Under the pieces are notes generated by a model. It did not search any database. It was given only the letters and a program-made list of their open reading frames with translations, and had not been told where the DNA came from. Shown piece after piece: positions 4,959-54,997 of a stretch of DNA of 64,000 bases (the first letter of the stretch is position 1; the number at the start of each line of letters is the position of its first letter). A program made the position numbers and the translations under genes. Source of the stretch: Eledone cirrhosa (Eukaryota). The stretch spans positions 62,000,001 to 62,064,000 of the forward strand of contig OZ024745.1 in assembly GCA_964016885.1 (NCBI GenBank), written 5' to 3'.

Positions 4959-4993
<35 letters not shown>

Positions 4994-5115
4994 GGAGGTG
5001 AGTTTTATTGTAGTACAATAAAGCAATGCAGATATCGGATAAGAAGCACTCTACAGTTTGTAGGACTGGAGTATGCATAATATAAGATCAAAAGATGGTT
5101 AAAGGAGTTTCATGT

Positions 5116-5184
5116 ATTTTATTATGCGCATTTCAAAAACAAACATCATCATGCAATAATATTTGTGTTTTCATCAGATAAAAC
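5116..5184 (-). ncRNA. Type I hammerhead ribozyme
   Basis: Reverse complement reads GTTTTAT-CTGATGA-long stem II-GAAA-TGCGCA-TA-ATAAAAT. Confidence 0.75.
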
Positions 5185-6861: not shown

Positions 6862-6930
6862 GTTTTATCTGATGAAAACACAAATATTATTGCATGATGA
6901 TGTTTGTTTTTGAAATGCGCATAATAAAAT
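6862..6930 (+). ncRNA. Type I hammerhead ribozyme
   Basis: GTTTTAT-CTGATGA-AAACACAAATATTATTGCATGATGATGTTTGTTTTT-GAAA-TGCGCA-TA-ATAAAAT. Confidence 0.75.
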
Positions 6931-6958
6931 AATGGAACTCTTTTAACCATCTTTTGAT

Positions 6959-6997
<39 letters not shown>

Positions 6998-10700: not shown

Positions 10701-11150
10701 CCAACGTGCATCCAGGATACCATTCCAGTCCCCCACTAAAAGCAAGGAGCGAGACGTTCCCAGGAAATTCTCCAGGCGTCGGAAGAAGTCCGGTCGCGGT
10801 GTCCCAGATGGGGCATACGCTGCCACCAGCCTGAAAGCTCCACCTTCACCTCTGCCGACGTCTAAAACCACCAGTCGACCCTCCGGGTCCAGGTGTACCT
10901 TCTGTGTGGCAAGACCCAGGTATTTTCGCAGCAGAACGACAACCCCACCCCCACCCCTCGGCTGACAGAGAGATGCGTAGATCTCAAAGTCGTCGAAGAT
11001 GGGGGCCAGTTGGCGCTCGCTGCTGATCCTGGACTCGCAAATAACCATTACATCCACTCTGTGCGACCTGAGGTCATTTAAGAGTTTGCCCTGTTTCTAG
11101 GACATCCCCAAGCCGCGTGCATTCACACATCCAACTCTTATATTGGCCAT
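7741..11150 (-). pseudogene. ORF2 (APE-RT-zinc finger) of the Tx1-like element, split by several frameshifts or stops
   Basis: Starts MANIRVGCVNARGL at 11150 and continues through ORF fragments 10662-11057, 9224-10597, 9011-9196, 8475-9080, 7962-8453 and 7741-8073. Confidence 0.9.
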
Positions 11151-11192
11151 GTTGATGCTGAAGAGGTAAAAAGGAAGAGGAAAGGAAATTAC

Positions 11193-12944
11193 TTACCTCT
11201 TCGTCTCCTGGGGACCAGGCTGCACAATTTCCATGGGGGTGTTGGAGGGGTTGTTTGGTGGTGTGATGGTTTGTGGTGGGGTGAGGACATCAGTGTGTGG
11301 TGGGATTAGGGTGTTTGGTGGGGTGTGGGTGTCTGGTGTGGGGGTGGGGAAACATCTCAATAGGACGCTGTTATGTGGTTTGGTGCAGTTGGTCCCCACA
11401 TGCATTGGATGGTTCTTTTTCAAAGTTACATAGGTTTCCGTTGGGACCCTAATCATCATTAGGTGCGATTTGTTCGCTGCGTAGGTGAAAGTGATCCCTT
11501 CGGTTTCCACCGAAGGGTTATTTTCTATCGCTTTCATCAACGTTTTATTGTTCTTGTTAATGTATGTATAGAGTTTTTGTTGTGTTGTGTTTGTTTTTGT
11601 TTGTTGTTCTTGTGCGCGTTTGCGTTTTGTAGTAAGTGTTATGTTTTGGGGAGGGGTGGGTTTTTTTATTTGTGATGTTTGTTCTGTTTGTGCTGGTGGT
11701 TGTGTGTTTGTGGCATTTTTGTTAATGTGGTGCCTTTTTTTTTCCTTTTCACCTGTTGAAAGGGTTCTCCCTCGTCGTCACTGTGTGACGTTGATACGGA
11801 GTCCTCTTCCGTGTTGTTGGGGAGGGGTATATTTTGGGGTTTTGTTGTGGTTGCTTTTGTATTTGTTTTAGGTGGGGAGGGGTTGGGTGGAGCAGTGTTT
11901 TGTGTTGTTATTTTTCCGTGTTGTCGTGGTTGTGTTGTTGTGTTCGGGGTTGGCAGAAGAGCCTTTTTTTTTTACTCGTTAATTGAGGACAGGCAGCCCT
12001 CAGGTGACCCCTGCTTAAGCAGTGGTAACATGACGGCCGCCTTCCCTCCACTGAAATGTTTATATAAGTTAGCCCGTCCAGAGGCACGCGTTGTGGGATA
12101 TTCGCTATTCGTTCTGGGCTCATTTGCACCAGAACTTCTACGGTGGTCCCACCAAATACACCTCCGGAGGACTTTCCTATTGAAATTATCTTGTCTTCGT
12201 CAAAGTTAATTATTCCACATAGTATCCACCAAATATTTACATTTGGTGTGATACTCATTATTTTTATTCTTTGTGTCCTTTTTCCCCTGTATGTGGGGTA
12301 AAAGGTGAAGCGGGGGGACACAATGGGTGCTACCGAGTACTTTTGAGCTGTTGACTGGTTGTTCATTAGCACCGAAATGCTACCAAACAGTTTACCTTTT
12401 TGTATGAAGGTTAAATCCTTTATTGCATCTTTTAGAACCAGCTCAATTTCATTTTGTGATAATTGAGCTAGTTTTCTTGTTTCGTTCGATATTGTCCTGA
12501 AAACCACAGTTTTCAGGACAGCCTCTCTACGTAATTCCTGTGGGGAATTGATGCTAAAAGCACCGTTTTCGCCAAAAGTCACGAATTGTTTTGCGTCTTG
12601 TAATAGTTGTTTAGCATTTGTTATGTCTATTGGCGTGTATAGTTCGTTTTCTTTACGGTCTGTGCGAATGTTGTTTTGGTGTTGTTGTCTTTTTTGTTAC
12701 TGTCACTGTTGGTAATATTGGTGTTGCTATTGTTGCAGTTGTTGGTTGTGGTGTTATTGTCATTGTTCTTGTTGTGGGTGCTGGTATTATTTACTGGGTT
12801 TGGTTTCGTGGTTTCGATATTTTTCACGTTTTTCGATGATCCGAGGGGGGAAGGCTGCAAGCTTTGTACTCCTACCTTCCCTCCACCACTTTTCTTAGTG
12901 GGCGTGGCACTCACGACAGTGTGCGAGATAGAAATGGCATCCAT
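11193..12944 (-). pseudogene. ORF1 (gag-like, zinc knuckle) of the Tx1-like element, frameshifted
   Basis: Fragments 12627-12944 (N/T-rich), 11908-12582 (CCHC knuckle) and 11193-11540 (P/T-rich tail), all upstream of ORF2. Confidence 0.75.
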
Positions 12945-18284: not shown

Positions 18285-21200
18285 TTAGGTAAGGCGGGTC
18301 TTCTCTATTACTGAGTACCGCCAAAGGTCTCGGTCCAGTGACATTGTCTTGGAGAGGTGTAAGCGTGTGAGGTCGGAATTTATCAGCTCGTCCCATGTTT
18401 TTCTGGGTCTGCCTACTCCGTGGCTACCGTCTATCTTTATTGCCCTGCACTTTGTTATACAGCTGTCGTCTTTCATGCGCATCACGTGACCGTACCAACG
18501 TAGCCTTCTCTCGAGTAAACAACATCTGATCCCTCTTATTTCTAATTTTTTCCTTAGTTCGTTTATGCTTTGCCGTTCACGTATATTACTATTGCACATC
18601 CAGCGGAGCATGCAAGCTTCGTTCCTCTCTAGTCTGCGTATATCCTCTGCACACAATGCCCAGGTCTCACTGCCATGCAGCATTGCTGTTCGTATGCAGG
18701 CATCGTATAACCTGCCTTTCATTTTTAGGGAGAACCCTCTAGCGGCTAATAGTGGTATAAGCTCTCTGAACTTTTTCCATCCAGTTCTGACTCTAGCTAC
18801 TGTACTTTCAGAGCACCCTCCCCCACTGCTGATTTTGTCACCCAGATAACGGAAGCTGTCCACTATTTCTATAGAACCCTCTGCGCAGTTGAAGGAGCTA
18901 GTATTTTGTGGGCACTTGCTGCTACTTATTGCACCAGAGCACCGGCCACATGTAAAATCTATGTTCTTAGTTAGCTTACCTGTGATCCCACTACATCTTT
19001 TATGCACCCATACTTTGCATTTGGGACATAAAATGGAGTTTCTACCTACGCCTTTCCTACACACTGAGCATGGCCATTTCCCAGATGGGACCGCCGCCTT
19101 ATTTTCTTTCCTACAAACTAGAACTTTAGTCTTAGCCAGGTTAATTTTAAGGCCTTTTGATTCTAGGCCGTGCTTCCATGTTTGGAATTTCTTCTCTAGT
19201 TCGGTCATTGATTCAGCTATGAGCGTTAGATCATCTGCGTATAGGAGTTCCCATGGGCAGCCGGTCTTGAACTCCTCTGTTATAGCCTGAAGGGCAATAA
19301 TAAATAGTAGGGGGCTAAGAACAGAGCCCTGATGGACACCAACTTTTACGCTAAACTCTTCACTATATTCGTTGTTAATTCTAACCTTACTGACTGTTTC
19401 TTTATACATGGCTTGTATAGCTCTCACAAGCCATTCGTCAACACCTAGTTTTCTAAGAGACCACCAGATAATGGAACGGGGGACTCTGTCGAAGGCTTTC
19501 TCCAAGTCGACGAAAGCTAAGTATAGGGGTTTACTTTTAGCTAGGTACTTCTCCTGTAGTTGTCGTACAATGAAAAGAGCGTCTGTGGTACTTTTGCCTG
19601 ACACAAACCCGAACTGCATTTCATCTAGATCAATTCTCTCTCTGATTAGTTGCGCTATTACTTTTTCCGTGACCTTCATGACCTGGTCGATTAATTTAAT
19701 GCCTCTATAGTTACTCCTATCTAGGGCATCTCCTTTTCCCTTATAGCAGTTAACGATGATGCTGCTACGCCAGTCCTTCGGAACAACCCCATTCTGTACG
19801 ACTTGGTTAACTATCCGGGTGACCATGGTGTGTCCCACCGAACCAGATGCCTTCAGCATCTCAGCAACTATTTCCGAAGGCCCAGCCGCCTTACCCGTCT
19901 TCATATCTTTGATTGCCTTACTTATTATACTACCTTCAACTAACACTGCTGGTCCCTCTATTGGATCGATCTGGGGGAGACTGTCTTTCTCCCATTTGTT
20001 CTCCTCATTTAGAAGCCTTTCGTAGTGACACTTCCAAGCTACCTTCTTATCAGCGTCGGTGATGGCAAGTATGCCATCATCGTTAAGTACACACTTCTCC
20101 CCGACAATATCACGGTTTTCCTTGACACATTGCCTGGCAATCCTGAACACCTCACGTTTTTGGTCCTCACGTTGTAGAACATGCTTGAACTTTCTTTCCT
20201 CTGCTTCCCTTCTTGCGAAGTACACTTGTCTCCTAGCTTCCCTCCTGGCCACTTGATAGTCTTCTCTACTTCCCCCATCCCGCCATACTTTCCAAGCCTG
20301 CTTTTTGGCCTTAATTGACTCCTCCACCTTACTGTTCCACCACCATGTTACTCTCCTCCTACCTACAGGCCTGCTCCAGCCACAGACTTCGTCTGCCGCC
20401 GTCAGCAGGTTTGCTCTCAGGAATTCCCACTGTTCCTCTATATTATACGACTCTAATTGCTCTTCCTTACTGTCGAAAGCGTCAAGTAATATGCTTTGAA
20501 ATTTATTTCTGGCTATGGGGTCCTTTAGCTTCCATATTTTTCTCCTGAGGATAGTCCTCTTCCGCTGTCTAGTACGTCTCGTCCTGACTATGAGGTCGCT
20601 AATTATCAGTCTATGTTGGGAGGTGAATTCTTCATGGGGGTGGGATTTAGTGTTAACAACAGACACTCTGTCACGTCTTCTGGTAAGGATATAGTCTACC
20701 TGGCTTGTGTGTTCCCCCGATCTATAGGTGATCAAGTGATTGTCTCGTTTTTTGAAGTTAGTGTTACAGATAGTTAAGTTATTTGCATCGCAGAATTCAA
20801 GGATTCTGGACCCTTCCTCATTTCTAGTACCGAACCCATAGCCTCCATGGATTCCGTCATAGCCGTCACAATGTTGTCCAACGTGACCATTTAGGTCGCC
20901 TGCAATAACTATATAGTCACTGTCGGTTATTTGGGAGGTAGCGAGCATCAGTGTCTCGTAGAATCTGTCTTTTATAGCGCCGGGCAGTCCGGATTGGGGT
21001 GCGTACGCAGATATTACTGTCACCGTAGTTTTATTGAGGACAAGTCTTATTTTAATTATTCTGTCGTTCACTCTATTTACGTCTATTATCTTATCTGCCC
21101 ACTTTTCTGCTACCATGATTCCTACCCCACCCAACCCATTGTCATTTCCCACCCAGAAAAGCTTATAGCATCGTTCTTTACCCACGATGAATCTAGCCGA

Positions 21201-21305
21201 CCCTCCCCTCCACCTGGTCTCTTGAATACAACAAACATCGACCTCCTTACGTTCAAGCATTTCTACAACCTCGTTAGAGCGACCCTTTAAGGTGCCTACA
21301 TTCAT
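18285..21305 (-). CDS. RTE LINE polyprotein: APE endonuclease, reverse transcriptase and Cys/His (PHD-like) insertion, 1006 aa, uninterrupted
   Basis: Motifs NVGTL, CIQETRW, SAYAPQ, AGDLNGHVG, QVDYIL, NYRGIKL, FVDLEKAFD, GVHQGSVLSP, LYADD, CSVC..CPKC..HKRC and RRLRWYGHV. Confidence 0.93.
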   Translation of the reverse strand: MNVGTLKGRSNEVVEMLERKEVDVCCIQETRWRGGSARFIVGKERCYKLFWVGNDNGLGGVGIMVAEKWADKIIDVNRVNDRIIKIRLVLNKTTVTVISAYAPQSGLPGAIKDRFYETLMLATSQITDSDYIVIAGDLNGHVGQHCDGYDGIHGGYGFGTRNEEGSRILEFCDANNLTICNTNFKKRDNHLITYRSGEHTSQVDYILTRRRDRVSVVNTKSHPHEEFTSQHRLIISDLIVRTRRTRQRKRTILRRKIWKLKDPIARNKFQSILLDAFDSKEEQLESYNIEEQWEFLRANLLTAADEVCGWSRPVGRRRVTWWWNSKVEESIKAKKQAWKVWRDGGSREDYQVARREARRQVYFARREAEERKFKHVLQREDQKREVFRIARQCVKENRDIVGEKCVLNDDGILAITDADKKVAWKCHYERLLNEENKWEKDSLPQIDPIEGPAVLVEGSIISKAIKDMKTGKAAGPSEIVAEMLKASGSVGHTMVTRIVNQVVQNGVVPKDWRSSIIVNCYKGKGDALDRSNYRGIKLIDQVMKVTEKVIAQLIRERIDLDEMQFGFVSGKSTTDALFIVRQLQEKYLAKSKPLYLAFVDLEKAFDRVPRSIIWWSLRKLGVDEWLVRAIQAMYKETVSKVRINNEYSEEFSVKVGVHQGSVLSPLLFIIALQAITEEFKTGCPWELLYADDLTLIAESMTELEKKFQTWKHGLESKGLKINLAKTKVLVCRKENKAAVPSGKWPCSVCRKGVGRNSILCPKCKVWVHKRCSGITGKLTKNIDFTCGRCSGAISSSKCPQNTSSFNCAEGSIEIVDSFRYLGDKISSGGGCSESTVARVRTGWKKFRELIPLLAARGFSLKMKGRLYDACIRTAMLHGSETWALCAEDIRRLERNEACMLRWMCNSNIRERQSINELRKKLEIRGIRCCLLERRLRWYGHVMRMKDDSCITKCRAIKIDGSHGVGRPRKTWDELINSDLTRLHLSKTMSLDRDLWRYSVIEKTRLT

Positions 21306-21469
21306 GGTACCAACTCTGAAGTTTTGGATTGCGTTTGGAGGGTGGGAGCGGTGGGGCGCGGGGGGGGGGATGGGGTTATGTTAGCCATCCTGGGCCGAAA
21401 CAAGGAGGAGTGCTTGCATTCTCGTCCACGAGGTGAATTTGGCTTTATCTTTGGCATTGTCGCTGAGCG

Positions 21470-35574: not shown

Positions 35575-35677
<103 letters not shown>

Positions 35678-35823
35678 TAAATAGTTAAACAAGATCCAAT
35701 GAGTATGTCAAAGAATGAGTTTTACAGTAGATTGGAAGCACTCTACGGTAAAATATATTTTTCCTGAGTTATTAATATTAAAATACAAATATTAATAAAA
35801 TAGATGTTCTTTTTATCAATTAC

Positions 35824-35876
35824 ATTTTATTATACATATTTCGGATGTACAACTGTACGTCCTCATCAGACAAAAT
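35824..35876 (-). ncRNA. Type I hammerhead ribozyme
   Basis: Reverse complement of the motif at 37780-37832. Confidence 0.8.
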
Positions 35877-37779
35877 ATAATGATAAATCACATACCCTGA
35901 GATGTTAAATGGTTAAGATTTAATCAAGGTAGTGATTAACCCAAGAAAAATTTAACATTTATACCCTAATAATGAGAAAATGCGAAAACGTAATAAAATC
36001 AACAGAGAAAGTGCGAGTAATAAAAACGTTGCTTAATGTAACAGTTACATAGATATTAAGATGTATGATACTATAATTTTTGAATAAAGGGGGGTAATAA
36101 GCTGAAGAAGATTTAGTTTTGCCGAAAGTTAAACGGTTAATTTTGAAAATATTTATCCACGTCTTTATCACAGCTCATATGGTCTTTAAAAGAGAAAGAT
36201 TTAAAATACTCTATTCTTTGGACAGAACTTCGTAACTGTGGAATTTACCGCAACTCTAGTATATCAAATAACTGCTCGCTCTGTACAATGGAGACCCTGT
36301 TGATTATTAATAACTATGAGACCCTAATTAACAAAAAAGTGAATTATTCTCTCGTTGCCTCCATAAAGCTACATCCACAGTCTTAGCCTCCCACAAAACG
36401 AGAAAAAAAGAGAGTCTAGCATTAAACCATTGAAAACTTGGTTGTCAGACATATATAATGAACAGGGAAAAACATTAATGGCCTTTAATATTGCATTATC
36501 TTATAACTATCTATAGAAGAAATAACGCTCGAATGAAAGACACTTGTTTAATAACATGCTGAACATTTACACACATAACAATATTTTACTAACTTTGATC
36601 AATACCATTATTTCTTTATTTCTTTATTTCTTTATCTCTCTATCTATCTTCCTTTCTAAGTTTTAAATTTTAGTTTAATATCCAACCCATATATTTTTAC
36701 GGATCTTATTTATAACTGTGAATTTTTTAACGCGTTTTTTTTATCTCTTATTTATAATATATTACATTATGTATGTAATTATATTTTCTATATTTTTTTT
36801 TGAATATACCTACTGCATTTATATATCCATGATTCAAATATAGAGCAAATATCCAAACTATAAATTATAGACATTATCTTGAACTCTGAATTATCCATGC
36901 ATTTTTTATTATTCTTTCTCTTATATACATATATGTATTTAACTGTAACACATAGAACTTTATTATATACAATTGTAACCGTTATCATCTACCTAAAGTA
37001 TACTGTACCATTAATATCTAATATATATCTATATATACCTCCCTATATATTACTATATATCATTTTTAGTTAACTTCTAAATTTCTTGGTTACGTTTACT
37101 AAGAATAATTAATGCATTTACACTCTGTTATATATAGGTGTATATTTAACCATAACATGCATCAATCCATTATTTTGTTATCATCTACCTAAAATATACT
37201 AGCTCATTAATATATATATATACATAATCGTTATTTAAATATTTCTAACAATAAGTAATTCGCAAGCTTTACATACCTAATACGCTCAGTATTTCCGTTA
37301 AAGTTTACATTTAGGAAATTAATCAACAGTATAAACTTTCACTCCGTTGGCCAGCTAATACCTATAAATGTTATCCACATGAAATTCAGAATCTTTGAAA
37401 TGTTAACACATTTATAGAATTTATAAAACTAATATATAAATAACCAGAAATCAAAAAGATCAAAATCAAAATCTCGAACCTTCACCCTATAATACCATAA
37501 ATTAAATATTTTCAAAATTAACCGTTTAACTTTCGGCAAAACTAAATCTCCTTCAGCTCATTACTCCCCTTTATTAAAAAATTATAGTATTATACATCTT
37601 AAGATCTATTTAACTGTTACATTAAGCAACGTTTTTCTTACTCGCACTTTCTCTGTTGATTTTATTACGTTTTCGCATTTTTATTATTAGGGTATATATG
37701 TTAAAATTTTCTTGGGTTAATCACTACCTTGATTAAATCTTAACCATTTAATATCTCAGGGTATGTGATGTATCATTAT

Positions 37780-37832
37780 ATTTTGTCTGATGAGGACGTA
37801 CAGTTGTACATCCGAAATATGTATAATAAAAT
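37780..37832 (+). ncRNA. Type I hammerhead ribozyme
   Basis: ATTTTGT-CTGATGA-GGACGTACA-GT-TGTACATCC-GAAA-TATGTA-TA-ATAAAAT. Confidence 0.8.
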
Positions 37833-37873
37833 GTAATTGATCAAAAGAACATCTATTTTATTAATATTTGTAG

Positions 37874-37910
<37 letters not shown>

Positions 37911-37962
37911 AGTATGCATGTATACGTACATACATATATGTATACAGACGTACAGTAGCATG

Positions 37963-37996
<34 letters not shown>

Positions 37997-38160
37997 TACA
38001 TACATATGCATACAGGTACACATACATATATGCACGTATCAGTTTAGCGGCGCTTATTATAACGTCGCTTTGTTCGTTTGTAAACAAACTGAACAGCCTG
38101 AATTTATGCCATACGGTGTTAAGGCAACCACGTCACCTTTTTGTTCAACACTGACCCAGG

Positions 38161-38205
38161 AACGATGTACTAGTTTCAAGCTTGTTAGCTATCATCAGCA
38201 CCGTT
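38161..38205 (-). ncRNA. Hammerhead ribozyme, array A unit 1
   Basis: Reverse complement reads AACGGTG-CTGATGA-TAGCT-AACA-AGCTT-GAAA-CTAG-TA-CATCGTT. Confidence 0.8.
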
Positions 38206-38628
38206 TACCCATCTGCCAGATAGTTGAACGTTCGAAATTATATACTTTCCTTATGAAAATTAACGGCTGAGCAGCCTAATTTGCATATTGAGTGAGTAAA
38301 ATCGGTCAGGCATACCGAAAACGATAAATTGAAACAAAATGAAAACGAAATTTCATTTCTCACTCTTAGTATGGCACTTACTTAAATGTAAGTATGCATG
38401 TATACGTACATACATATATGTATACAGACGTACAGTAGCATGCACATATATATATATACATATATACATACATATGCATACAGGTACACATACATATATG
38501 CACGTATCAGTTTAGCGGCGCTTATTATAACGTCGCTTTGTTCGTTTGTAAACAAACAAAACAGCCTGAATTTATGCCATACGGTGTTAAGGCAACCACG
38601 TCACCTTTTTGTTCAACACTGACACAGG

Positions 38629-38673
38629 AACGATGTACTAGTTTCAAGCTTGTTAGCTATCATCAGCACCGTT
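38629..38673 (-). ncRNA. Hammerhead ribozyme, array A unit 2
   Basis: Identical motif to unit 1. Confidence 0.8.
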
Positions 38674-39136
38674 TACCCATCTGCCAGATAGTTGAACGTT
38701 CGAAAGTATATACTTTCCTTATGAAAATTAACGGCTGAGCAGCCTAATTTGCATATTGAGTGAGTTAAATCGGTCAGGCATACCGAAAACGATAAATTGA
38801 AACAACATGAAAACGAAATTTCATTTCTCACTCTTAGTATGGCACTTACTTAAATGTAAGTATGCATGTATACGAACAAAGCGACGTTATAATAAGCGCC
38901 GCTAAACTGATACGTGCATATATGTATGTGTACCTGTATGCATATGTATGTATATATGTATATATATATATATATATGTGCATGCTACTGTACGTCTGTA
39001 TACATATATGTATGTACGTATACATGCATACTTACATTTAAGTAAGTGCCATACTAAGAGTGAGAAATGAAATTTCGTTTTCATTTTGTTTCAATTTATC
39101 GTTTTCGGTATGCCTGACCGATTTAACTCACTCAAT

Positions 39137-39144
39137 ATGCAAAT
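39137..39144 (+). promoter_or_regulatory. Octamer motif ATGCAAAT (candidate snRNA-type promoter element), array A
   Basis: Lies about 80 nt upstream of the HHR and is conserved in array B despite divergence. Confidence 0.45.
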
Positions 39145-39217
39145 TATGCTCCTCAGCCGTTAATTTTCATAAGGAAAGTATATACTTTCGAACGTTCAAC
39201 TATCTGGCAGATGGGTA

Positions 39218-39262
39218 AACGGTGCTGATGATAGCTAACAAGCTTGAAACTAGTACATCGTT
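39218..39262 (+). ncRNA. Hammerhead ribozyme, array A inverted arm
   Basis: AACGGTG-CTGATGA-TAGCTAACAAGCTT-GAAA-CTAG-TA-CATCGTT. Confidence 0.8.
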
Positions 39263-39569
39263 CCTGTGTCAGTGTTGAACAAAAAGGTGACGTGGTTGCC
39301 TTAACACCGTATGGCATAAATTCAGGCTGTTCAGTTTGTTTACAAACGAACAAAGCGACGTTATAATAAGCGCCGCTAAACTGATACGTGCATATATGGA
39401 TGTGTACCTGTATGCATATGTATGTATATATGTATATATATATATATATATATGTGCATGCTACTGTACGTCTGTATACATATATGTATGTACGTATACA
39501 TGCATACTTACATTTAAGTAAGTGCCATACTAAGAGTGAGAAATGAAATTTCGTTTTCATTTTGTTTCA

Positions 39570-39699
<130 letters not shown>

Positions 39700-40412
39700 A
39701 TTCTACCTAGAAATCTGTGTGCGTATATGTATTCTGTGTGCTTTGTTACTGTGTGTATGTTTATATGAGTGATAAATAACTAAAGAATAGTACGGATGAC
39801 AAGGTTGAAATGCGAGACATAGACTGATGATATTTGATTTAAGTGACTAAATTAAAGATAAACAGAGCAGAAGCGACATACAATTTGAAAAGCTTAAACA
39901 TAAACAATCCTGACCAAATTATTAACATCGATTCGATATTCTAGTTGTGAAGAGTAATATACATCACTGACCTTCACTGTATATAAATAGTTTTCAATCA
40001 ATTTGATATCGTTATATTTCCAAACGGATGATCAGTAACTAAAAGGAAAATTATGATGTTTCATTTTATCATTATAGATGTAGAGCAAATTATAAAAAGA
40101 AATTATCAAAGGTGTGAAGTTGCTTTTAAGATAGTGGCAGCATTTGTTCGGATGCATATGCGGAATTGAATTGATGTAGTTCAAAATTGAACGTTTGACC
40201 TATAAGCATTATCAATATAATCATATATGTATTTATTGAGTAGGAGATGATAACATGAAGATCATTTCTAGCATTTTAAGTTCATATTTTAAGTTCATTT
40301 CAACGTAAGCTGAAATGCGTTTTACTATAGATAACCCCTTATTTTGAGGTTCAGATTACATACCTTCAATATAACTGCCATTTCTAACTGGTCCCGAAAA
40401 CTAAATTTCACA

Positions 40413-40789
<377 letters not shown>

Positions 40790-40859: not shown

Positions 40860-43826
<2,967 letters not shown>

Positions 43827-43829
<3 letters not shown>

Positions 43830-45190
43830 GTGAAACACTGGAAGGTAATATCCGTAGTGGTAGAGCACTCAGTCCAAGGGACGAGTTAGATAGAAGTGGT
43901 TACACAACAGTTAGTTCACCATACCGAGAACAATTGTTTCACATTCGCGGATCTTCAGCTCGGGATGTGTATGGTTATAGGAACAGGAAGGACAATCGTA
44001 CGAACGCGCATGCGCAGAAACTCGGTCACTTCACACAGGCAATAGTAGACTGCGTGCGGGGGGTGTAAAGGAGATAACTGCGAAAGTCCGGAAAGTTTTT
44101 TGGTCGAAAATAAAATAAAAAAATTTAAAATTAAAATTTCAAAGAATCAGTCCGGAGCCTTGTAGTTATGTAATAGATGTTTGGTGACGTGTGGATAACG
44201 TGTGAAAAAATAACTCTCGTGTTTAGGCAATAACTATTGCGTAATCTCTTTAGGATAGTTATTCGTTCGTCAATACATAAGACACACCTCGGATTTCCCT
44301 TGCGTATGGCTTGGACTTAGTGATGGCTTTCCATTGAATGGAGTACTCTATACTTGAGTCCTTGAGGGACCATACGTGGCTCGCGAGTTTCGTGGATGAA
44401 CGCCTGTCCGGGTATCTGAAGGTAGACTGGTGGTTCAGGAAACGCTCCTTGAATCGGACCTCCGCCATGCCCACATAGGATTTGACCGCCTGTGGTTCGT
44501 TTGGTCGGTTGGAAGTGACCACAGCTTCATAGATTACAGCTGGTGTGTTGCATTGTTGTTGAAGGGGGCAAGCTTCAGGCTTACGGCAAGAGCACCCTGG
44601 TGGGGTGTTGCTCCTAGGGCTGCTGGTGATGTGGGACTTCATGTTCTTAGCGCAGGAGTATCCTAGTTTAACTTTGTGTCGGTTAAAGATGGAGCGGTAT
44701 TTATGACCTATGGGGAAGTGTCTATCTAAGAGGGCTAGAAATCTTTTTCCTACATTGGTTTTAACGTTGAGTGAGAAGGGAGGAGAGAAGTTTGTCTATT
44801 GTTGCACTTACTTTTCTTAATGGTGTTGTTGCTAGTGGGAGAGTAAATGATAGGCTGTGAGAAGCCGCTGTTAGCCAACGCCGTGTTATAGTAGGGTGCC
44901 GCCCTGTCAAAGATAGCCTTATTAGAGGAGAGGTTTGAGATTCTAGTACTGATATTCTTAACGAAGTTTCTAAAAACAGTGGGAGCGTGGCATGAGTCCT
45001 TTTGAATGTAATTAAGTTTCTCGTTTAGCTTCTGGAAGGGTCTGTGGGTGTGTGTGCGAAGGTCTAAATTAATGTCTAAGAAATCTACGCTAGAGAGGTT
45101 GGTGGCTACTGTTATCCTAAGACCTAACTCATTGAAGATAGAAGCTAAGTCTTTTTTAAACCGGTCGAGGTCGTGACCACTTTTATGGCC
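43827..45190 (-). mobile_element. Penelope-like element (Neptune type) 3' remnant
   Basis: CSCRKPEACPLQQQC, IYEAVV..YVGMAE..FKERFLNHQSTF and TKLASHVWSLK. RT and thumb remnants at 44640-45180 (VDFLDINLDL, KLGYSC). pLTR carries a HHR. Confidence 0.88.
43920..43967 (-). ncRNA. Type I hammerhead ribozyme in the Neptune pLTR
   Basis: Reverse complement reads CCGAG-CTGAAGA-TCCGCGAATGT-GAAA-CAATTG-TT-CTCGG. Stem II is weak. Confidence 0.65.
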
Positions 45191-45230
45191 CGATAAAGTC
45201 TTATATATATATATTTATATATATAAAGTG

Positions 45231-45265
<35 letters not shown>

Positions 45266-45347
45266 TCGATAAAGTCTTATATATATATATTTATATATAT
45301 AAAGTGTTATATATATATATATATATATATATATGGCTCGATAAAGT

Positions 45348-45352
<5 letters not shown>
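45190..45352. repeat. 3 x ~76-bp CGATAAAGTCTT-(TA)n tandem units
   Basis: CGATAAAGTCTT occurs at 45190, 45266 and 45339. Confidence 0.8.
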
Positions 45353-45404
<52 letters not shown>

Positions 45405-46323: not shown

Positions 46324-46327
<4 letters not shown>

Positions 46328-46675
46328 AAAAAATAGAGGTGTAACACACGAGATGTGATATATTAGTAAAAGGAAAAGATAATGCTGACAAATTTTTCCC
46401 AGTGAAAAATAGTTTAATTAGGAATAACTATAAATTATTAATAAGTATTGGTTAGTATTCAGTTTTAGTTTTAAGTTTTTACCGATTAGAGCAAACATCA
46501 CGAGCGCTCTATCTCAAAATTATTTTTGAAAAGCATTAAAAATGCGCAACCGGTAAAACCTTAAAACTAAAACTGAATACTAACCAATACTTATTACTAA
46601 TTTATACTTATTCCTAATTAAACTATTTTTCACGGGGGAAAAATTTGTCACCATTTTCTTTTCCTTTTACTAATA
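46324..46675. mobile_element. Solo foldback of the pLTR of the 40860-43392 PLE family
   Basis: GTATTCAGTTTTAGTTTTAAGTTTTTACCG arm mirrored by CGGTAAAACCTTAAAACTAAAACTGAATAC. Matches 40860-41080. Confidence 0.8.
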
Positions 46676-46736
46676 TATATATATATATATATATATATAG
46701 AAGGATTTTAATGGATACAGTTTAGTTAAAAGGAAT

Positions 46737-48979: not shown

Positions 48980-49066
<87 letters not shown>

Positions 49067-49101
49067 TACAGAATAATCAAAACTATGTTCAAAACATTTT
49101 A

Positions 49102-49150
49102 TTGCTGACAATCGTTTCTTACAAACTTTCGTTTGAATTCATCGGAGCAT
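49102..49150 (-). ncRNA. Hammerhead ribozyme variant (CCGAUGA core)
   Basis: Reverse complement reads TGCT-CCGATGA-ATT-CAAAC-GAAA-GTTTG-TAA-GAAA-CGATTG-TC-AGCA. Confidence 0.55.
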
Positions 49151-50507
49151 TGGCAAAGTTTAGACATATAATTAACCTCCTATTCCACAGAATAATTGTA
49201 AAGGTACATAGATATTAGTGTTGTCATTAACAGTGTCATATTTAAAGAGTGAAGATGGTGTGGTCAGTATCAGTGGATGCGACAAAGATTATAAAAGAAT
49301 AATAAAACAAGAGGAATTAAAGAAGAAAGTTACTCGCAAAATGAGGACATTAGCGGTACGTATGCAAACGTATAGAAATAGGGAAGAGGTATTAGGCATA
49401 TACAGAATAACCAGGTAAGAAACACGCAATGACACTAAGCATATATATCACAGTATGGCAAAGGTATCACATAATACAATACAGGTATAAAAGCATATTA
49501 AGCAGACAGAGATGCGTGGGTATGAAAATCAGTTTCTATGAAGTTTATGGTGGATGCAATGTGATAATTGTTCCGGTAATGTTCAAATGTGCATGTGTTG
49601 TGAGTATTAATATTAAGGTTTTCCTTTCCATTACATTGGTTATATTTTAGTAAATGTTTATTAGTAGCTACAACTATGGATTGTATATTGGTCCTATTAC
49701 GATCTTATCATGGGTTAGAGTTGTTCTGGAGTGATGTGTCTAAAGGTTTAATTTCAGGAAGTGATCAGAGATCTATACTAAGGGAAGCTAATTTGAAAGG
49801 GGAGGTAATTGGCGATTAATTTGTGTATAAGAGAAAAGTATATAGTTGTTTACAACTCCAATTAGTTAAATTCTATGTGTATACAATATATTATGTTATA
49901 AGTGAATTCTTTTATATAATGCTATTTATTTTTAAAATTTATATATTTAATTTTAAATACAATATTTTTTCTATATACCTTAAAGTTCTCATTTTATCAC
50001 TACCTATCTATATATTAATTAAATGAATAAAATATATGTTTATTCCCATTAGTTATTGTAGAGTATAAGATCTGAGATAAACATTGATAAAAATTTAACA
50101 TTGAGTGCTTTCGTAACAGTCTTCGAAATTCAATCGGATGCGAATCTGCTACTTGCAGCTGCAACTCCGTTTATACTCATTACTATTATATATATATATA
50201 TTTATATAGATATAAAAACAAATAACAAAACGAAATTAAATTTCGTTTCGTTTGTAACTCACTTTTGTATGACTGACGCTTAAACAATTAAGTTAAAAAT
50301 GTACATCTACATATGCATACTGAAATACTAGTGTGTATATGAATACACACACGTATACATATGTAGGTGTAACAAGTCTTTCACTGGTTGCTTTACTGTG
50401 AGCAACCCAGCTATTCTGTATGTAAACACACAGACAAACCGGTTTTTAGAGTCATACTGGTTTTCGGGGGAACACCTTCCCTCTATTCTCCAGAAAGCCA
50501 GACAAGG

Positions 50508-50552
50508 AATATTGAACTAGTTTCGTTGTTGTTACAACTCATCAGCAATATT
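50508..50552 (-). ncRNA. Hammerhead ribozyme, array B inverted arm
   Basis: Reverse complement reads AATATTG-CTGATGA-GTTGT-AACA-ACAAC-GAAA-CTAG-TT-CAATATT. Confidence 0.85.
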
Positions 50553-51006
50553 TACCTATCTACCGGCCCCTCTGGAGAATTGTAAAAGCACATATCGTTA
50601 TATGCTTTTTCTATGAAAATTAGTAGTGGGCAGACTAATTTGCATAGAGTGTGAGTACGCACCGGTTCAGCGGAGACGATAAAAATAAATAACGAAACGA
50701 AATTAAATTTCGTTTCGTTTGTAACTCACTTTTGTATGACTGACGCTTAAACAATTAAGTTAAAAATGTACATCTACATATGCATACTGAAATACTAGTG
50801 TGTATATGAATACACACACGTATACATATGTAGGTGTAACAAGTCTTTCACTGGTTGCTTTACTGTGAGCAACCCAGCTATTCTGTATGTAAACACACAG
50901 ACAAACCGGTTTTTAGAGTCATACTGGTTACAAACGAAACGAAATTTAATTTCGTTTTGTTATTTGTTTTTATCGTCTCCGCTGAACCGGTGCGTACTCA
51001 CACTCT

Positions 51007-51014
51007 ATGCAAAT
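51007..51014 (+). promoter_or_regulatory. Octamer motif ATGCAAAT, array B (repeated in every unit)
   Basis: Lies about 93 nt upstream of HHR stem I, in a block conserved with array A. Confidence 0.45.
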
Positions 51015-51099
51015 TAGTCTGCCCACTACTAATTTTCATAGAAAAAGCATATAACGATATGTGCTTTTACAATTCTCCAGAGGGGCCGGTAGATAGGTA

Positions 51100-51144
51100 A
51101 ATATTGCTGATGAGTTGTAACAACAACGAAACTAGTTCAATATT
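51100..51144 (+). ncRNA. Hammerhead ribozyme, array B unit 1
   Basis: AATATTG-CTGATGA-GTTGTAACAACAAC-GAAA-CTAG-TT-CAATATT. Confidence 0.85.
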
Positions 51145-51566
51145 CCTTGTCTGGCTTTCTGAAGAATAGAGGGAAGGTGTTCCCCCGAAAACCAGTATGA
51201 CTCTAAAAACCGGTTTGTCTGTGTGTTTACATACAGAATAGCTGGGTTGCTCACAGTAAAGCAACCAGTGAAAGACTTGTTACACCTACATATGTATACG
51301 TGTGTGTATTCATATACACACTAGTATTTCAGTATGCATATGTAGATGTACATTTTTAACTTAATTGTTTAAGCGTCAGTCATACAAAAGTGAGTTACAA
51401 ACGAAACGAAATTTAATTTCGTTTCGTTATTTGTTTTTATCGTCTCCGCTGAACCGGTGCGTACTCACACTCTATGCAAATTAGTCTGCCCACTACTAAT
51501 TTTCAAAGAAAAAGCATATAACGATATGTGCTTTTACAATTCTCCAGAGGGGCCGGTAGATAGGTA

Positions 51567-51611
51567 AATATTGCTGATGAGTTGTAACAACAACGAAACT
51601 AGTTCAATATT
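51567..51611 (+). ncRNA. Hammerhead ribozyme, array B unit 2
   Basis: Identical motif to unit 1. Confidence 0.85.
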
Positions 51612-52046
51612 CCTTGTCTGGCTTTCTGGAGAATAGAGGGAAGGTGTTCCCCCGAAAACCAGTATGACTCTAAAAACCGGTTTGTCTGTGTGTTTACATA
51701 CAGAATAGCTGGGTTGCTCACAGTAAAGCAACCAGTGAAAGACTTGTTACACCTACATATGTATACGTGTGTGTATTCATATACACACTAGTATTTCAGT
51801 ATGCATATGTAGATGTACATTTTTAATTTACATTTTTAACTTAATTGTTTAAGCGTCAGTCATACAAAAGTGAGTTACAAACGAAACGAAATTTAATTTC
51901 GTTTTGTTATTTGTTTTTATCGTCTCCGCTGAACCGGTGCGTACTCACACTCTATGCAAATTAGTCTGCCCACTACTAATTTTCATAGAAAAAGCATATA
52001 ACGATATGTGCTTTTACAATTCTCCAGAGGGGCCGGTAGATAGGTA

Positions 52047-52091
52047 AATATTGCTGATGAGTTGTAACAACAACGAAACTAGTTCAATATT
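52047..52091 (+). ncRNA. Hammerhead ribozyme, array B unit 3
   Basis: Identical motif to unit 1. Confidence 0.85.
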
Positions 52092-52513
52092 CCTTGTCTG
52101 GCTTTCTGAAGAATAGAGGGAAGGTGTTCCCCCGAAAACCAGTATGACTCTAAAAACCGGTTTGTCTGTGTGTTTACATACAGAATAGCTGGGTTGCTCA
52201 CAGTAAAGCAACCATTGAAAGACTTGTTTCACCTACATATGTATACGTGTGTGTATTCATATACACACTAGTATTTCAGTATGCATATGTAGATGTACAT
52301 TTTTAACTTAATTGTTTAAGCGTCAGTCATACAAAAGTGAGTTACAAACGAAACGAAATTTAATTTCGTTTCGTTATTTGTTTTTATCGTCTCCGCTGAA
52401 CCGGTGCGTACTCACACTCTATGCAAATTAGTCTGCCCACTACTAATTTTCATAGAAAAAGCATATAACGATATGTGCTTTTACAATTCTCCAGAGGGGC
52501 CGGTAGATAGGTA

Positions 52514-52558
52514 AATATTGCTGATGAGTTGTAACAACAACGAAACTAGTTCAATATT
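52514..52558 (+). ncRNA. Hammerhead ribozyme, array B unit 4
   Basis: Identical motif to unit 1. Confidence 0.85.
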
Positions 52559-52993
52559 CCTTGTCTGGCTTTCTGGAGAATAGAGGGAAGGTGTTCCCCC
52601 GAAAACCAGTATGACTCTAAAAACCGGTTTGTCTGTGTGTTTACATACAGAATAGCTGGGTTGCTCACAGTAAAGCAACCAGTGAAAGACTTGTTACACC
52701 TACATATGTATACGTGTGTGTATTCATATACACACTAGTATTTCAGTATGCATATGTAGATGTACATTTTTAATTTACATTTTTAACTTAATTGTTTAAG
52801 CGTCAGTCATACAAAAGTGAGTTACAAACGAAACGAAATTTAATTTCGTTTTGTTATTTGTTTTTATCGTCTCCGCTGAACCGGTGCGTACTCACACTCT
52901 ATGCAAATTAGTCTGCCCACTACTAATTTTCATAGAAAAAGCATATAACGATATGTGCTTTTACAATTCTCCAGAGGGGCCGGTAGATAGGTA

Positions 52994-53038
52994 AATATTG
53001 CTGATGAGTTGTAACAACAACGAAACTAGTTCAATATT
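52994..53038 (+). ncRNA. Hammerhead ribozyme, array B unit 5
   Basis: Identical motif to unit 1. Confidence 0.85.
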
Positions 53039-53460
53039 CCTTGTCTGGCTTTCTGAAGAATAGAGGGAAGGTGTTTCCCCGAAAACCAGTATGACTCTAA
53101 AAACCGGTTTGTCTGTGTGTTTACATACAGAATAGCTGGGTTGCTCACAGTAAAGCAACCAGTGAAAGACTTGTTTCACCTACATATGTATACGTGTGTG
53201 TATTCATATACACACTAGTATTTCAGTATGCATATGTAGATGTACATTTTTAACTTAATTGTTTAAGCGTCAGTCATACAAAAGTGAGTTACAAACGAAA
53301 CGAAATTTAATTTCGTTTCGTTATTTGTTTTTATCGTCTCCGCTGAACCGGTGCGTACTCACACTCTATGCAAATTAGTCTGCCCACTACTAATTTTCAA
53401 AGAAAAAGCATATAACGATATGTGCTTTTACAATTCTCCAGAGGGGCCGGTAGATAGGTA

Positions 53461-53505
53461 AATATTGCTGATGAGTTGTAACAACAACGAAACTAGTTCA
53501 ATATT
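53461..53505 (+). ncRNA. Hammerhead ribozyme, array B unit 6
   Basis: Identical motif to unit 1. Confidence 0.85.
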
Positions 53506-53940
53506 CCTTGTCTGGCTTTCTGAAGAATAGAGGGAAGGTGTTCCCCCGAAAACCAGTATGACTCTAAAAACCGGTTTGTCTGTGTGTTTACATACAGACT
53601 AGCTGGGTTGCTCACAGTAAAGCAACCAGTGAAAGACTTGTTACACCTACATATGTATACGTGTGTGTATTCATATACACACTAGTATTTCAGTATGCAT
53701 ATGTAGATGTACATTTTTAATTTACATTTTTAACTTAATTGTTTAAGCGTCAGTCATACAAAAGTGAGTTACAAACGAAACGAAATTTAATTTCGTTTTG
53801 TTATTTGTTTTTATCGTCTCCGCTGAACCGGTGCGTACTCACACTCTATGCAAATTAGTCTGCCCACTACTAATTTTCATAGAAAAAGCATATAACGATA
53901 TGTGCTTTTACAATTCTCCAGAGGGGCCGGTAGATAGGTA

Positions 53941-53985
53941 AATATTGCTGATGAGTTGTAACAACAACGAAACTAGTTCAATATT
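53941..53985 (+). ncRNA. Hammerhead ribozyme, array B unit 7
   Basis: Identical motif to unit 1. Confidence 0.85.
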
Positions 53986-54407
53986 CCTTGTCTGGCTTTC
54001 TGAAGAATAGAGGGAAGGTGTTCCCCCGAAAACCAGTATGACTCTAAAAACCGGTTTGTCTGTGTGTTTACATACAGAATAGCTGGGTTGCTCACAGTAA
54101 AGCAACCAGTGAAAGACTTGTTTCACCTACATATGTATACGTGTGTGTATTCATATACACACTAGTATTTCAGTATGCATATGTAGATGTACATTTTTAA
54201 CTTAATTGTTTAAGCGTCAGTCATACAAAAGTGAGTTACAAACGAAACGAAATTTAATTTCGTTTCGTTATTTGTTTTTATCGTCTCCGCTGAACCGGTG
54301 CGTACTCACACTCTATGCAAATTAGTCTGCCCACTACTAATTTTCATAGAAAAAGCATATAACGATATGTGCTTTTACAATTCTCCAGAGGGGCCGGTAG
54401 ATAGGTA

Positions 54408-54452
54408 AATATTGCTGATGAGTTGTAACAACAACGAAACTAGTTCAATATT
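54408..54452 (+). ncRNA. Hammerhead ribozyme, array B unit 8
   Basis: Identical motif to unit 1. Confidence 0.85.
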
Positions 54453-54695
54453 CCTTGTCTGGCTTTCTGGAGAATAGAGGGAAGGTGTTCCCCCGAAAAC
54501 CAGTATGACTCTAAAAACCGGTTTGTCTGTGTGTTTACATACAGAATAGCTGGGTTGCTCACAGTAAAGCAACCAGTGAAAGACTTGTTACACCTACATA
54601 TGTATACGTGTGTGTATTCATATACACACTAGTATTTCAGTATGCATATGTAGATGTACATTTTTAACTTAATTGTTTATATAGATATATATATA

Positions 54696-54997
54696 TCAAA
54701 AAAGAGAATCAGTGTTGCGACGAAAGAAATTTATTGGACATTACAATTGTTTTCTAGGAAAATATGCTTCGTAGAATCGAGACGTATCCGACGACCGCAC
54801 AATTTCAGAGTCAGGTCTGATCACCATATCGATCCTGCCTCTCGAGCTGGTCGCCCAAGAAACAATTGTAATATGTCCATAAATTCCTTTCGTCGCAACA
54901 CTGATTCTCTTTTTTCTGTGATATCATACTCTGCTCTACGAGGGTATTGAGTGCTCATACGGCCTACCGCATACGGACGCTTTAAGCATCCAACACC

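Follow-up and report, generated by a model that had tools for sequence, protein, structure and literature searches.

How did a 4.5-kb array of 467-base units come to be set in a TA-repeat of the Eledone cirrhosa genome? The array (array 1) lies in the window analysed here, a stretch of 64,000 nucleotides of contig OZ024745.1 (positions 62,000,001 to 62,064,000); all coordinates below are those of the window. Its units resemble retrozymes, whose mechanism of mobilisation is still to be elucidated according to a preprint (10.64898/2026.07.22.740005). Mobilisation of animal retrozymes by Penelope-like elements (PLEs) has so far been argued via co-occurrence, shared hammerheads and terminal-repeat phylogeny, and insertion junctions with a PLE-specific tail would be a more direct type of evidence.

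Identity of the array 1 unit

On its sequence features, the array 1 unit is a non-LTR retrozyme with a predicted type I hammerhead. The Rfam HH9 model gave nine matches (38.6 bits, E 3.9e-7; under the gathering score of 52), and the CUGAUGA and GAAA core is intact in all nine motifs.

50492..50563, minus strand: type I hammerhead motif of the inverted arm (Rfam HH9, 38.6 bits)
51089..51160, plus strand: hammerhead motif of unit 1, recurring in all 8 long-arm units

The unit 1 motif combines the CUGAUGA core and GAAA with a short stem III carrying a palindromic ACUAGU, and cleavage is predicted after unit position 211 (position 1 is 50927). Only one of nine predicted retrozymes cleaved in vitro in the preprint (bioRxiv 10.64898/2026.07.22.740005), so hammerhead activity is not to be assumed here.

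The unit is 467 nt long with a GC content of about 36%, and its monomer is predicted to fold strongly (MFE -147 kcal/mol, z = -8.1; 0 of 100 shuffles equally stable). The units stand head to tail, with no LTR-internal-LTR layout. Array 1 contains no stop-to-stop frame of at least 90 aa and no ORF with RT and GIY-YIG, and it is not an autonomous PLE. The family is multicopy and dispersed: the summed contig depth of the monomer in one run was 1e5-5e5 versus 250-1000 in the nearest flank bins, values that represent depth and not copy number, and contigs matching the monomer also occurred in a second sample and under a second organism label.

Several candidate features were rejected. In three of the eight long-arm units, and in the left arm too, a second hammerhead-like core (CTGAAGA...GAAA) reads CTGGAGA; the second retrozyme family of the window does not have it, and Rfam did not find it. 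A search for a hammerhead core on the opposite strand found none. Rfam matches to miRNA and pestivirus models were far under their gathering scores and originate from TA-rich hairpins, and a two-sequence consensus fold was too shallow to support a conserved structure.

Arms, junction and unit variants

Array 1 consists of two unequal arms joined head to head (in the end-site motifs, the slash marks the end).

50212..50929, minus strand: short inverted arm, 718 nt or about 1.5 units, running from unit position 264 across a complete unit as far as 47
50212..50280, minus strand: 69-nt tail, at the outer end of the short arm only, between site A (445) and site B (47)
50927..50929, no strand: head-to-head inversion junction with GTT microhomology, two 5'-truncated ends
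50927..54679, plus strand: long arm, 8 tandem units, ending at site A (TTTA/AG)

The RNA sense of the short arm is on the minus strand, with its 3' end toward the left flank; the RNA 3' ends of both arms face outward and have primer-compatible matches to the target. The first-pass annotation had the two arms ending at different positions in the unit and joining through GTT near 50927. This is correct: the left arm ends on the outside at unit position 47 and the right arm at 445, and the 3-nt GTT overlap at 50927-29 connects positions 264 and 1. Neither outer end coincides with the predicted hammerhead cut. The tail holds a strong predicted hairpin. The microhomologies of array 1 are 3, 3 and 4 nt, and 3-4-nt matches at the ends could be incidental in AT-rich DNA.

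The long-arm units measure 467/480/467/480/467/480/467/445 nt, contain one hammerhead motif each, and are at least 99% identical once the 13-bp duplication carried by units 2, 4 and 6 is set aside. Units alternate at 32T/C and 236A/G, and derived alleles occur in blocks (the 13-bp duplication; 356T in units 3, 5 and 7; 113A in units 2 and 6), patterns that in a long-read assembly of near-identical units may be consensus errors. Between the left arm and its matching outer units in the long arm, 1 of 696 bases is different. The inner 947-bp repeats have common alleles that are missing from the outer units and from the left arm, and the single insertion event that the first-pass annotation raised as possible need not have brought in all eight units. 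The variants argue against one monomer circle as the source and suggest later inner amplification.

It is highly improbable that the inversion is an artefact of assembly or of fold-back reads. Tandem and inverted PLE structures do trouble assemblies (PMC8557442), and no spanning read or contig was seen at either junction, but the arms are asymmetric, with distinct flanks, end sites and variants of their own; the direct repeat that brackets the array is not a mirror image; and five more such structures with family-specific ends are present in the window. The unit count of array 1 could still be wrong in the assembly.

A probable target-site duplication

The array is bracketed by a 14-bp direct repeat.

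50201..50214, plus strand: left copy, probable target-site duplication (TSD), closing a short imperfect (TA)n tract
54676..54689, plus strand: right copy, of which the first 4 nt (TTTA) double as the element end

As first annotated, TTTATATAGATATA at 50201-50214 and 54676-54689 flanks the 4.5-kb array, and these are its only two copies on both strands of the 64-kb window. The match is not extendable to the left or right. The few-base overlap with the element ends, also noted previously, amounts to 3 nt on the left (ATA, 50212-14) and 4 nt on the right (TTTA, 54676-79). Only the 7-nt core TATAGAT is clear of the element at both ends of the array, which puts the length of the duplication at 7-14 bp.

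When the real left flank was kept fixed, a bracket of at least 14 bp appeared in 11 of 20000 random TA-rich right flanks. For blunt insertion without duplication at TA-rich sites, brackets of at least 14 bp with at least two interruptions were obtained in 243/4888, and with at least three interruptions, the observed number, in 94/6326. A pure-TA bracket of at least 14 bp is frequent by chance (2431 of 4888 sites) and therefore uninformative, so the evidence lies in the TTT and G interruptions of the 14-mer. Since a chance bracket this good is found at only about 1-5% of TA-rich sites, we regard the repeat as a probable TSD. Read depth dips at 50177-50254, a stretch that was excluded from read placement as repetitive, and this dip was not counted as evidence on an empty allele.

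A second array and recurring end sites

Another retrozyme array lies 11 kb from array 1.

37906..39575, no strand: second retrozyme array (array 2), 468-nt unit, 56% identical to the array 1 unit
37906-38874, minus strand: array 2 long arm, retrozyme tandem
38872-39575, plus strand: array 2 short arm, 704 nt, with a 3-nt junction overlap with the long arm
39514-39575, plus strand: array 2 tail, 62 nt

Array 2 has the same head-to-head anatomy, and both arrays combine a partial tandem with an inverted 5'-truncated copy. The comparison covers these two retrozyme insertions, of which only array 1 has a readable TSD, because both ends of array 2 sit in pure (TA)n. The target is AT-rich or (TA)n at all four ends of the arrays. 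Measured from the hammerhead cut, the ends are at 234 and 303 in array 1 and at 250 and 312 in array 2. Site B is TTTAT/CG in both arrays. Site A is 3 nt apart when the common TTTAAG word is aligned by eye, and 5 columns or about 10 apart otherwise. For both ends to agree within 7-nt windows, which were chosen after the data were seen, the chance is 2e-4 to 6e-4, allowing for a requirement of TA-like letters at the ends (111 of 468 positions usable). The array 2 end avoids an internal 13-nt alternating TA run, its best match to a (TA)n primer; therefore, position and not pairing would set the start of RT. Two post hoc observations (n = 2) concern the arms: the short arms are both about 1.5 units long (718 and 704 nt), and the long-arm 5' ends are +23 and -20 nt from site A.

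The end points of array 1 had been described as permuted and as fitting a circular or multimeric RNA template. In the one comparison available they are fixed, a pattern that the first-pass annotation had itself listed against its reading: array 2 ends at the same TTTAT/CG, and its other arm ends within 3-10 nt of the homologous site. Because the ends are fixed across two arrays, they are uninformative on a circular template, and caution is needed in that array ends alone do not demonstrate one. Rolling-circle RT of a monomeric circular RNA, with permuted start and stop and with 8 units and the inverted arm made in one event, is quite unlikely in our estimation. Other animals contain abundant retrozyme circles, which have been proposed as a source of multimeric cDNA (PMC7761336, PMC7229834), the monomer is predicted to fold strongly (z = -8.1), both array 1 ends are away from the hammerhead cut, and the array 2 variants are compatible with one template plus private mutations. 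However, a family that is 56% identical has the outer ends again, and independent errors on a single monomer circle would not produce the alternating units and block-shared alleles of array 1. A circular template copied from fixed internal start sites may still apply and is covered by the PLE-based explanation that we favour.

The two arrays also bear on how the inverted arm was made. One target-primed cDNA could have folded back and self-primed at GTT, in which case the inverted arm was copied as DNA from the long arm and the tail derives from later endonuclease resolution. Palindromic PLE junctions have been explained in print by self-priming (PMC3846280), endonuclease (EN) resolution has been suggested as the tail source (PMC8557442), and there is 8-nt perfect complementarity within 20 nt of the array 1 junction. 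We consider this origin unlikely. Copying would require 2 substitutions and a 13-bp gap between the left arm and units 1-3 (the best in-register match), or 2 substitutions and 69 nt missing from the long arm if units 7-8 were copied, and the array 2 short arm mismatches the sole copyable unit at 338 and 398 while agreeing with another unit. The 8-nt extended pairing was dropped as support, since such a match is expected in 450 of 6427 microhomology-compatible pairs (7%) and none was seen at the array 2 junction.

Two pattern scans of metagenome contigs gave 0 matches. RAD-seq loose-end piles (70-296 reads each) at 50286, 50289, 50388, 50621, 50636 and 50637 were discarded. Five of the six resembled fixed element ends from other loci; they are read as restriction-library ends, since each falls at an AATT word or a single base away, like the molecule-end piles at 49173, 50578 and 50618. 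The reads piled at 50388 share one consensus and resemble a sequence variant.

Neighbouring Penelope-like insertions

Besides the two arrays, the window contains four (TA)n-anchored inverted insertions, one of them with a decayed PLE RT. Two served as comparators.

40860..43395, minus strand: decayed coding PLE, 5'-truncated, with a short inverted terminal repeat, a one-sided tail of ~40 nt and (TA)n at both ends
46325..46678, no strand: small palindromic insertion of the PLE terminal-repeat family of 40860..43395, with ends at the same two positions and a tail of ~39 nt

All six inverted insertions examined in the window have (TA)n on both sides, which in array 1 is a TA tract beyond the 14-mer, and a one-sided tail, with lengths of about 39, 40, 62, 69, 94 and 101 nt. 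A rule that the tail is always on the short arm was true for only four of the six and was dropped. A frame in one inverted insertion has 63 longer relatives, 6 of which carry both RT and GIY-YIG. BLAST of both retrozyme monomers against six PLE-like or flanking segments of the window found no similarity, and a Pfam scan of seven local ORF fragments returned nothing meaningful.

These insertions weigh on whether retrotransposition was involved at all. An older direct array or solo unit might have grown by unequal crossing-over, with the inverted arm from DNA break repair and the 14-mer by chance. Local amplification has been proposed for retrozyme arrays in a preprint (bioRxiv 10.64898/2026.07.22.740005), the inner 947-bp block looks amplified, and chance brackets occur at 1.5-5% of TA-rich sites. 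Such an origin nevertheless leaves unexplained the two end sites shared by two families, the one-sided tails in 6/6 insertions and the (TA)n at both ends, and it must contend with the near-identity of the left arm and the matching outer long-arm units (1/696 bases different); we judge it improbable.

Proposed insertion mechanism

We propose as the likely origin of array 1 an insertion by a PLE RT/GIY-YIG acting in trans, with nicks in both strands of (TA)n and priming at two fixed internal RNA sites. Staggered nicks 7-14 bp apart would yield the TSD. The bottom-strand nick would prime at site A (TTTA/AG) to produce the long arm, and the top-strand nick at site B (TTTAT/CG), 69 nt more 3' in the unit, to produce the short arm. 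The two cDNA 3' ends would then anneal via GTT, followed by repair, and the tail would be the gap between the two internal RT start sites. The template would be multimeric, its variant units alternating, and could be a linear read-through transcript or a circle of several units; an uncleaved multimer is favoured because neither end is at the hammerhead cut. Unequal exchange probably multiplied the inner 947-bp segment, either once the array was in place or earlier, in the parent array. The earlier proposal of a TSD arising from both-strand priming by a PLE RT/GIY-YIG thus stands in a graded form: the TSD is probable, and the priming fits the outward RNA 3' ends, the short primer-template matches and published PLE anatomy.

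More tentatively, animal retrozymes may own a conserved PLE-loading module, a hairpin-bearing segment of 60-70 nt that is kept across 56%-identical families, is unlike the PLE terminal repeats tested and would position two RT active sites at fixed points, with a dimeric PLE copying from both nicks simultaneously. If this is true, retrozyme arrays would start as tailed palindromic insertions, the junctions would be direct evidence of genome entry by ribozyme RNAs, and a minimal cis-element for PLE-driven insertion would be defined. The element type and the anatomy are both known, and we did not find their combination in print. Because these ingredients are known and a PLE-retrozyme link was already predicted, the existing model would be confirmed and sharpened, not overturned. 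The junctions pinpoint a target and two RNA positions to the base, and the in vitro PLE assay already in use, or a genome-wide tabulation, could put them to the test.

Comparison with known systems

Metazoan non-LTR retrozymes (PMC7229834, PMC7761336, 10.64898/2026.07.22.740005) are likewise tandems of units that lack coding capacity and hold a single type I hammerhead. They share with array 1 a GC content <50%, a highly self-paired monomer and co-occurrence with PLEs, and their TSDs, where present, are >4 bp, in agreement with the array 1 bracket. The 467-nt unit slightly exceeds the 150-450 bp given by Cervera and de la Pena 2020 (PMC7229834) and is inside the 51-972 bp of Li et al. (10.64898/2026.07.22.740005). 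Self-cleavage and circular RNA have been shown for metazoan retrozymes; in array 1 the hammerhead is a sequence prediction. Inverted arms, tails and fixed insertion ends are not described in the available parts of these reports.

The insertions of EN+ PLEs (Penelope/Poseidon, Neptune, Naiad; PMC3846280, PMC8557442, PMC11167929), like the arrays, comprise a partial tandem and a head-to-head inverted 5'-truncated copy with a one-sided tail, and have a TSD of about 8-10 bp; a PLE insertion typically shows this inverted 5'-truncated copy together with the tail and the TSD (PMC3846280, PMC8557442). As in array 1, the target is AT-rich or (TA)n, and the ends lie at two fixed internal RNA positions off the hammerhead cut. 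Unlike EN+ PLEs, the arrays have no ORF; their tails of 62 and 69 nt are longer than the 30-40 nt of these elements; their hammerhead scores on the canonical HH9 model, in contrast to the minimal pLTR core; and they have no detected similarity to the local PLE terminal repeats. A PLE from anole cuts AT-rich DNA on both strands and extends each of them; its RT begins at two internal positions of the RNA, which set the bounds of the tail, and hammerhead cleavage is unnecessary (PMC11167929). Its initiation in vitro occurs without homology to the cut DNA (PMC11167929), whereas array 1 has 3-4-nt matches.

PLEs with an N-terminal EN (Naiad, Chlamys) are described as lacking canonical hammerheads (PMC8557442, PMC9977147). 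The Chlamys PLEs MRC1 and Chlamys-N4 (PMC8557442, PMC9977147) are, like array 1, non-coding PLE dependants with multicopy head-to-tail insertions in microsatellites. MRC1 and Chlamys-N4 are green algal, and their 3' end resembles those of autonomous partners; no such likeness was found between array 1 and the six PLE-like or flanking segments of the window.

A further parallel is L1 twin priming, reportedly put forward by Ostertag and Kazazian in 2001, in which priming from both nicks is said to make an inversion with inner microhomology and one TSD. L1 reportedly starts at the poly(A) end, and its second primer is said to anneal by homology at variable internal sites. In the arrays here, by contrast, the two proposed starts are both internal, at positions that recur.

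Results

The two arms of array 1, the 4.5-kb hammerhead-bearing array, stand head to head in RNA sense, with their 3' ends toward the flanks and their truncated 5' ends joined at GTT. As the first-pass annotation had stated, this GTT (50927–50929) is common to both arms.

Arms of array 1 (unit position 1 = 50927)
50212–50929, minus strand: short arm, 718 nt
50927–54679, plus strand: long arm, eight tandem units of alternately 467 and 480 nt, the last ending at position 445

Judged from its sequence, array 1 is a non-LTR retrozyme of the kind described in the available text of PMC7229834 and PMC7761336, with predicted ribozyme activity. A type I hammerhead motif is present in every unit, with a predicted cut after position 211. 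Rfam HH9 matches the array nine times (eight on the plus strand in the long arm, one on the minus strand in the short arm) at 38.6 bits (E = 3.9e-7), below the gathering score of 52. The monomer is predicted to fold with z = −8.1 relative to shuffles, and no frame in the array reaches 90 aa. Contig depth in one run was 1e5–5e5 on the monomer vs 250–1000 on the nearest flank bins. The monomer was also matched by contigs of a second sample and a second organism label, and pattern scans of metagenome contigs gave 0 matches. In the available text of a 2026 preprint, only one of nine predicted retrozymes cleaved. A second hammerhead-like core (CTGAAGA...GAAA) lies just 3' of the true motif at 51159–51190 and equivalent positions; it is kept in five of the eight units, with CTGGAGA in the remainder, and is probably incidental.

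The 14-mer TTTATATAGATATA brackets array 1 as an exact direct repeat (50201–50214 and 54676–54689) and has no further copy on either strand of the window. It is overlapped by the element ends through the microhomology already noted, ATA on the left and TTTA on the right, leaving seven bases, TATAGAT, that are not element sequence at either end. When the real left flank was kept constant and right flanks were random TA-rich sequence, a bracket of at least 14 bp arose in 11 of 20000 cases. At TA-rich sites, simulated blunt insertion without duplication gave a bracket of at least 14 bp with at least two interruptions in 243 of 4888 cases, and one with at least three interruptions in 94 of 6326. 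Thus, of the target-site duplication (TSD) proposed in the first-pass annotation, the exact repeat stands and is rarely matched by chance, while the duplication itself, of 7–14 bp, is probable and short of proof. Loose read-end piles in a RAD run sit on AATT words and were discarded as a signal.

Two repeats flank the bracket.

49064–50190, left flank: multicopy repeat whose hammerhead-like core, near 49145 (minus strand), has decayed; 12 contigs of one run end in (TA)n here
54698–54915, 9 bp from the right 14-mer: MITE-like, with long terminal inverted repeats

Along the long arm, the bases at positions 32 and 236 alternate (at 236, unit 6 is off-pattern), and the alternation is in phase in the short arm; therefore, a heterogeneous template was copied. 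Two variants, a 13-bp duplication (units 2, 4 and 6) and 356T (units 3, 5 and 7), occur only in the inner 947-bp blocks; units 1 and 8 and the short arm lack them. A single monomer circle does not yield this pattern. Multimeric RNA with unequal exchange, earlier or later, does yield it, and consensus errors might. A linear template would require no mismatch if the outer unit of the short arm were long-arm unit 1, the 47-nt overlap being identical. Fold-back self-priming requires extra changes in both arrays. The variants of array 2, a second retrozyme array, fit a circle and a linear template alike. The RNA template of array 1 may or may not have been circular. A single insertion event is supported for the frame, in which both arms lie inside one TSD; given the inner-block variants, this support does not extend to the full set of eight units.

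BLAST of the array 1 unit revealed the diverged relative at 38.2–39.2 kb. Its 468-nt unit carries a hammerhead and matches the array 1 unit in 253 of 450 aligned columns (56%). The layout is the same, with a 3-nt inner overlap and (TA)n at both ends.

Arms of array 2
37906–38874, minus strand: long arm, about 2 units
38872–39575, plus strand: short arm, about 1.5 units

The long and short arms end 234 and 303 nt from the hammerhead cut in array 1, and 250 and 312 nt in array 2. Both short arms stop identically at TTTAT|CG (site B). The long arms stop at site A, 3 nt apart on a common TTTAAG word by eye, or 5 columns apart in one alignment and about 10 in a global alignment. The probability of both ends coinciding by chance in 7-nt windows, chosen after seeing the data, ranges from 2e-4 for uniform sites to 6e-4 for TA-compatible sites taken in either order, and rises about threefold by hand arithmetic if site A is widened to 10 nt either side. 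A 13-nt alternating TA run inside array 2, the best match to a (TA)n primer, was left unused as an end. The arrays differ in their inner break points (257 and 53 vs 230 and 91). One arm is longer by a tail, the stretch between sites A and B, of 69 nt in array 1 and 62 nt in array 2, with a predicted hairpin. The end points had been described as permuted; instead, the outer ends of the two arrays nearly coincide and appear fixed, a claim based on two retrozyme insertions and four local comparators. In both arrays (n = 2), the long-arm 5' ends (50927 and 38874) fall within about 23 nt of site A, and each short arm spans about 1.5 units. Array 2 directly adjoins a different inverted element at the latter's (TA)n end, and the internal TA tract of array 2 differs in length from unit to unit.

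The comparators are four more head-to-head inverted, (TA)n-anchored insertions chosen from self-comparison of the window; terminal-inverted-repeat elements (e.g., 40412–40749 and 54698–54915) were left out of the count. All four have a tail on one side only.

Comparator insertions
4991–6965: tail about 94 nt; near-perfect palindrome; one hammerhead-like core per arm, a purine-rich tandem repeat of 221 bp inside, no long ORF
About 35675–37878: tail about 101 nt; AT-rich, 380-bp inverted terminal repeats, hammerhead cores
40860–43395: tail about 40 nt; decayed ORF pieces
46325–46678: tail about 39 nt; 354-bp palindrome

The tails of the first two share the word GTAGAGTGCTTC. The last two are members of a single terminal-repeat family and share both end positions, and a motif scan found no hammerhead core in either. 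For one ORF piece of 40860–43395, 63 longer relatives reach E 1e-8 or better; 24 of them carry GIY-YIG and six both RT and GIY-YIG, which identifies the element as a Penelope-like element (PLE). The host is an animal and, judging by the repeat landscape and by the best match of a local ORF (Octopus vulgaris, 64%), probably a cephalopod. A PLE-like fragment at 43830–45214 (minus strand), resembling the Neptune type by its motif, contains a GIY-YIG-like frame at 44259–44795, which is a lead only; the fragment is followed by a 72-bp tandem duplication of its TA-tract junction (45184–45402). Neither retrozyme monomer resembles these local PLE-like elements at the DNA level.

Other elements of the window
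7962–12696, minus strand: second LINE, frameshifted
18285–21380, minus strand: LINE, which we take to be RTE-like, with an uninterrupted 1031-aa endonuclease-RT frame and a 112-bp tandem repeat downstream
40412–40749: (TC)n(TA)n(GA)n core between 76-bp inverted repeats

Discussion

Retrozymes, their proposed dependence on PLEs and the anatomy of PLE insertions have already been published. A full-text search of the open literature found no title or abstract opening mentioning inverted arms, tails or fixed ends of animal retrozyme arrays. The word "inverted" occurs 0 times in the main text of PMC7229834; in the main text of the 2026 preprint, "tail" occurs 0 times and "inverted" only within a reference. 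Non-autonomous Chlamys PLEs form head-to-tail arrays in microsatellites, according to the available text of PMC8557442 and PMC9977147. The array junctions described here make the retrozyme–PLE link directly testable.

Twin priming occurs in L1. For the arrays, we propose that staggered nicks would be made in a TA tract, that one nick would prime at site A and the other at site B, and that the cDNA ends would then be joined via 3-nt microhomology. We consider this combined mechanism moderately probable because the arrays match PLE anatomy in all but tail length. As described in the accessible portions of PMC3846280 and PMC8557442, PLE insertions comprise a partial tandem with an adjacent inverted 5'-truncated copy and have a short TSD; one end carries a tail of 30–40 bp. 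For an anole PLE, the available text of PMC11167929 reports that both strands of AT-rich DNA are cut and extended, that reverse transcription begins at two internal RNA sites with the interval between them forming the tail, that hammerhead cleavage is dispensable and that a dimer is predicted. Arrays 1 and 2 agree with this published anatomy and mechanism in every respect except the tail, which is 69 or 62 nt in the retrozyme arrays and 30–40 bp in the published PLEs.
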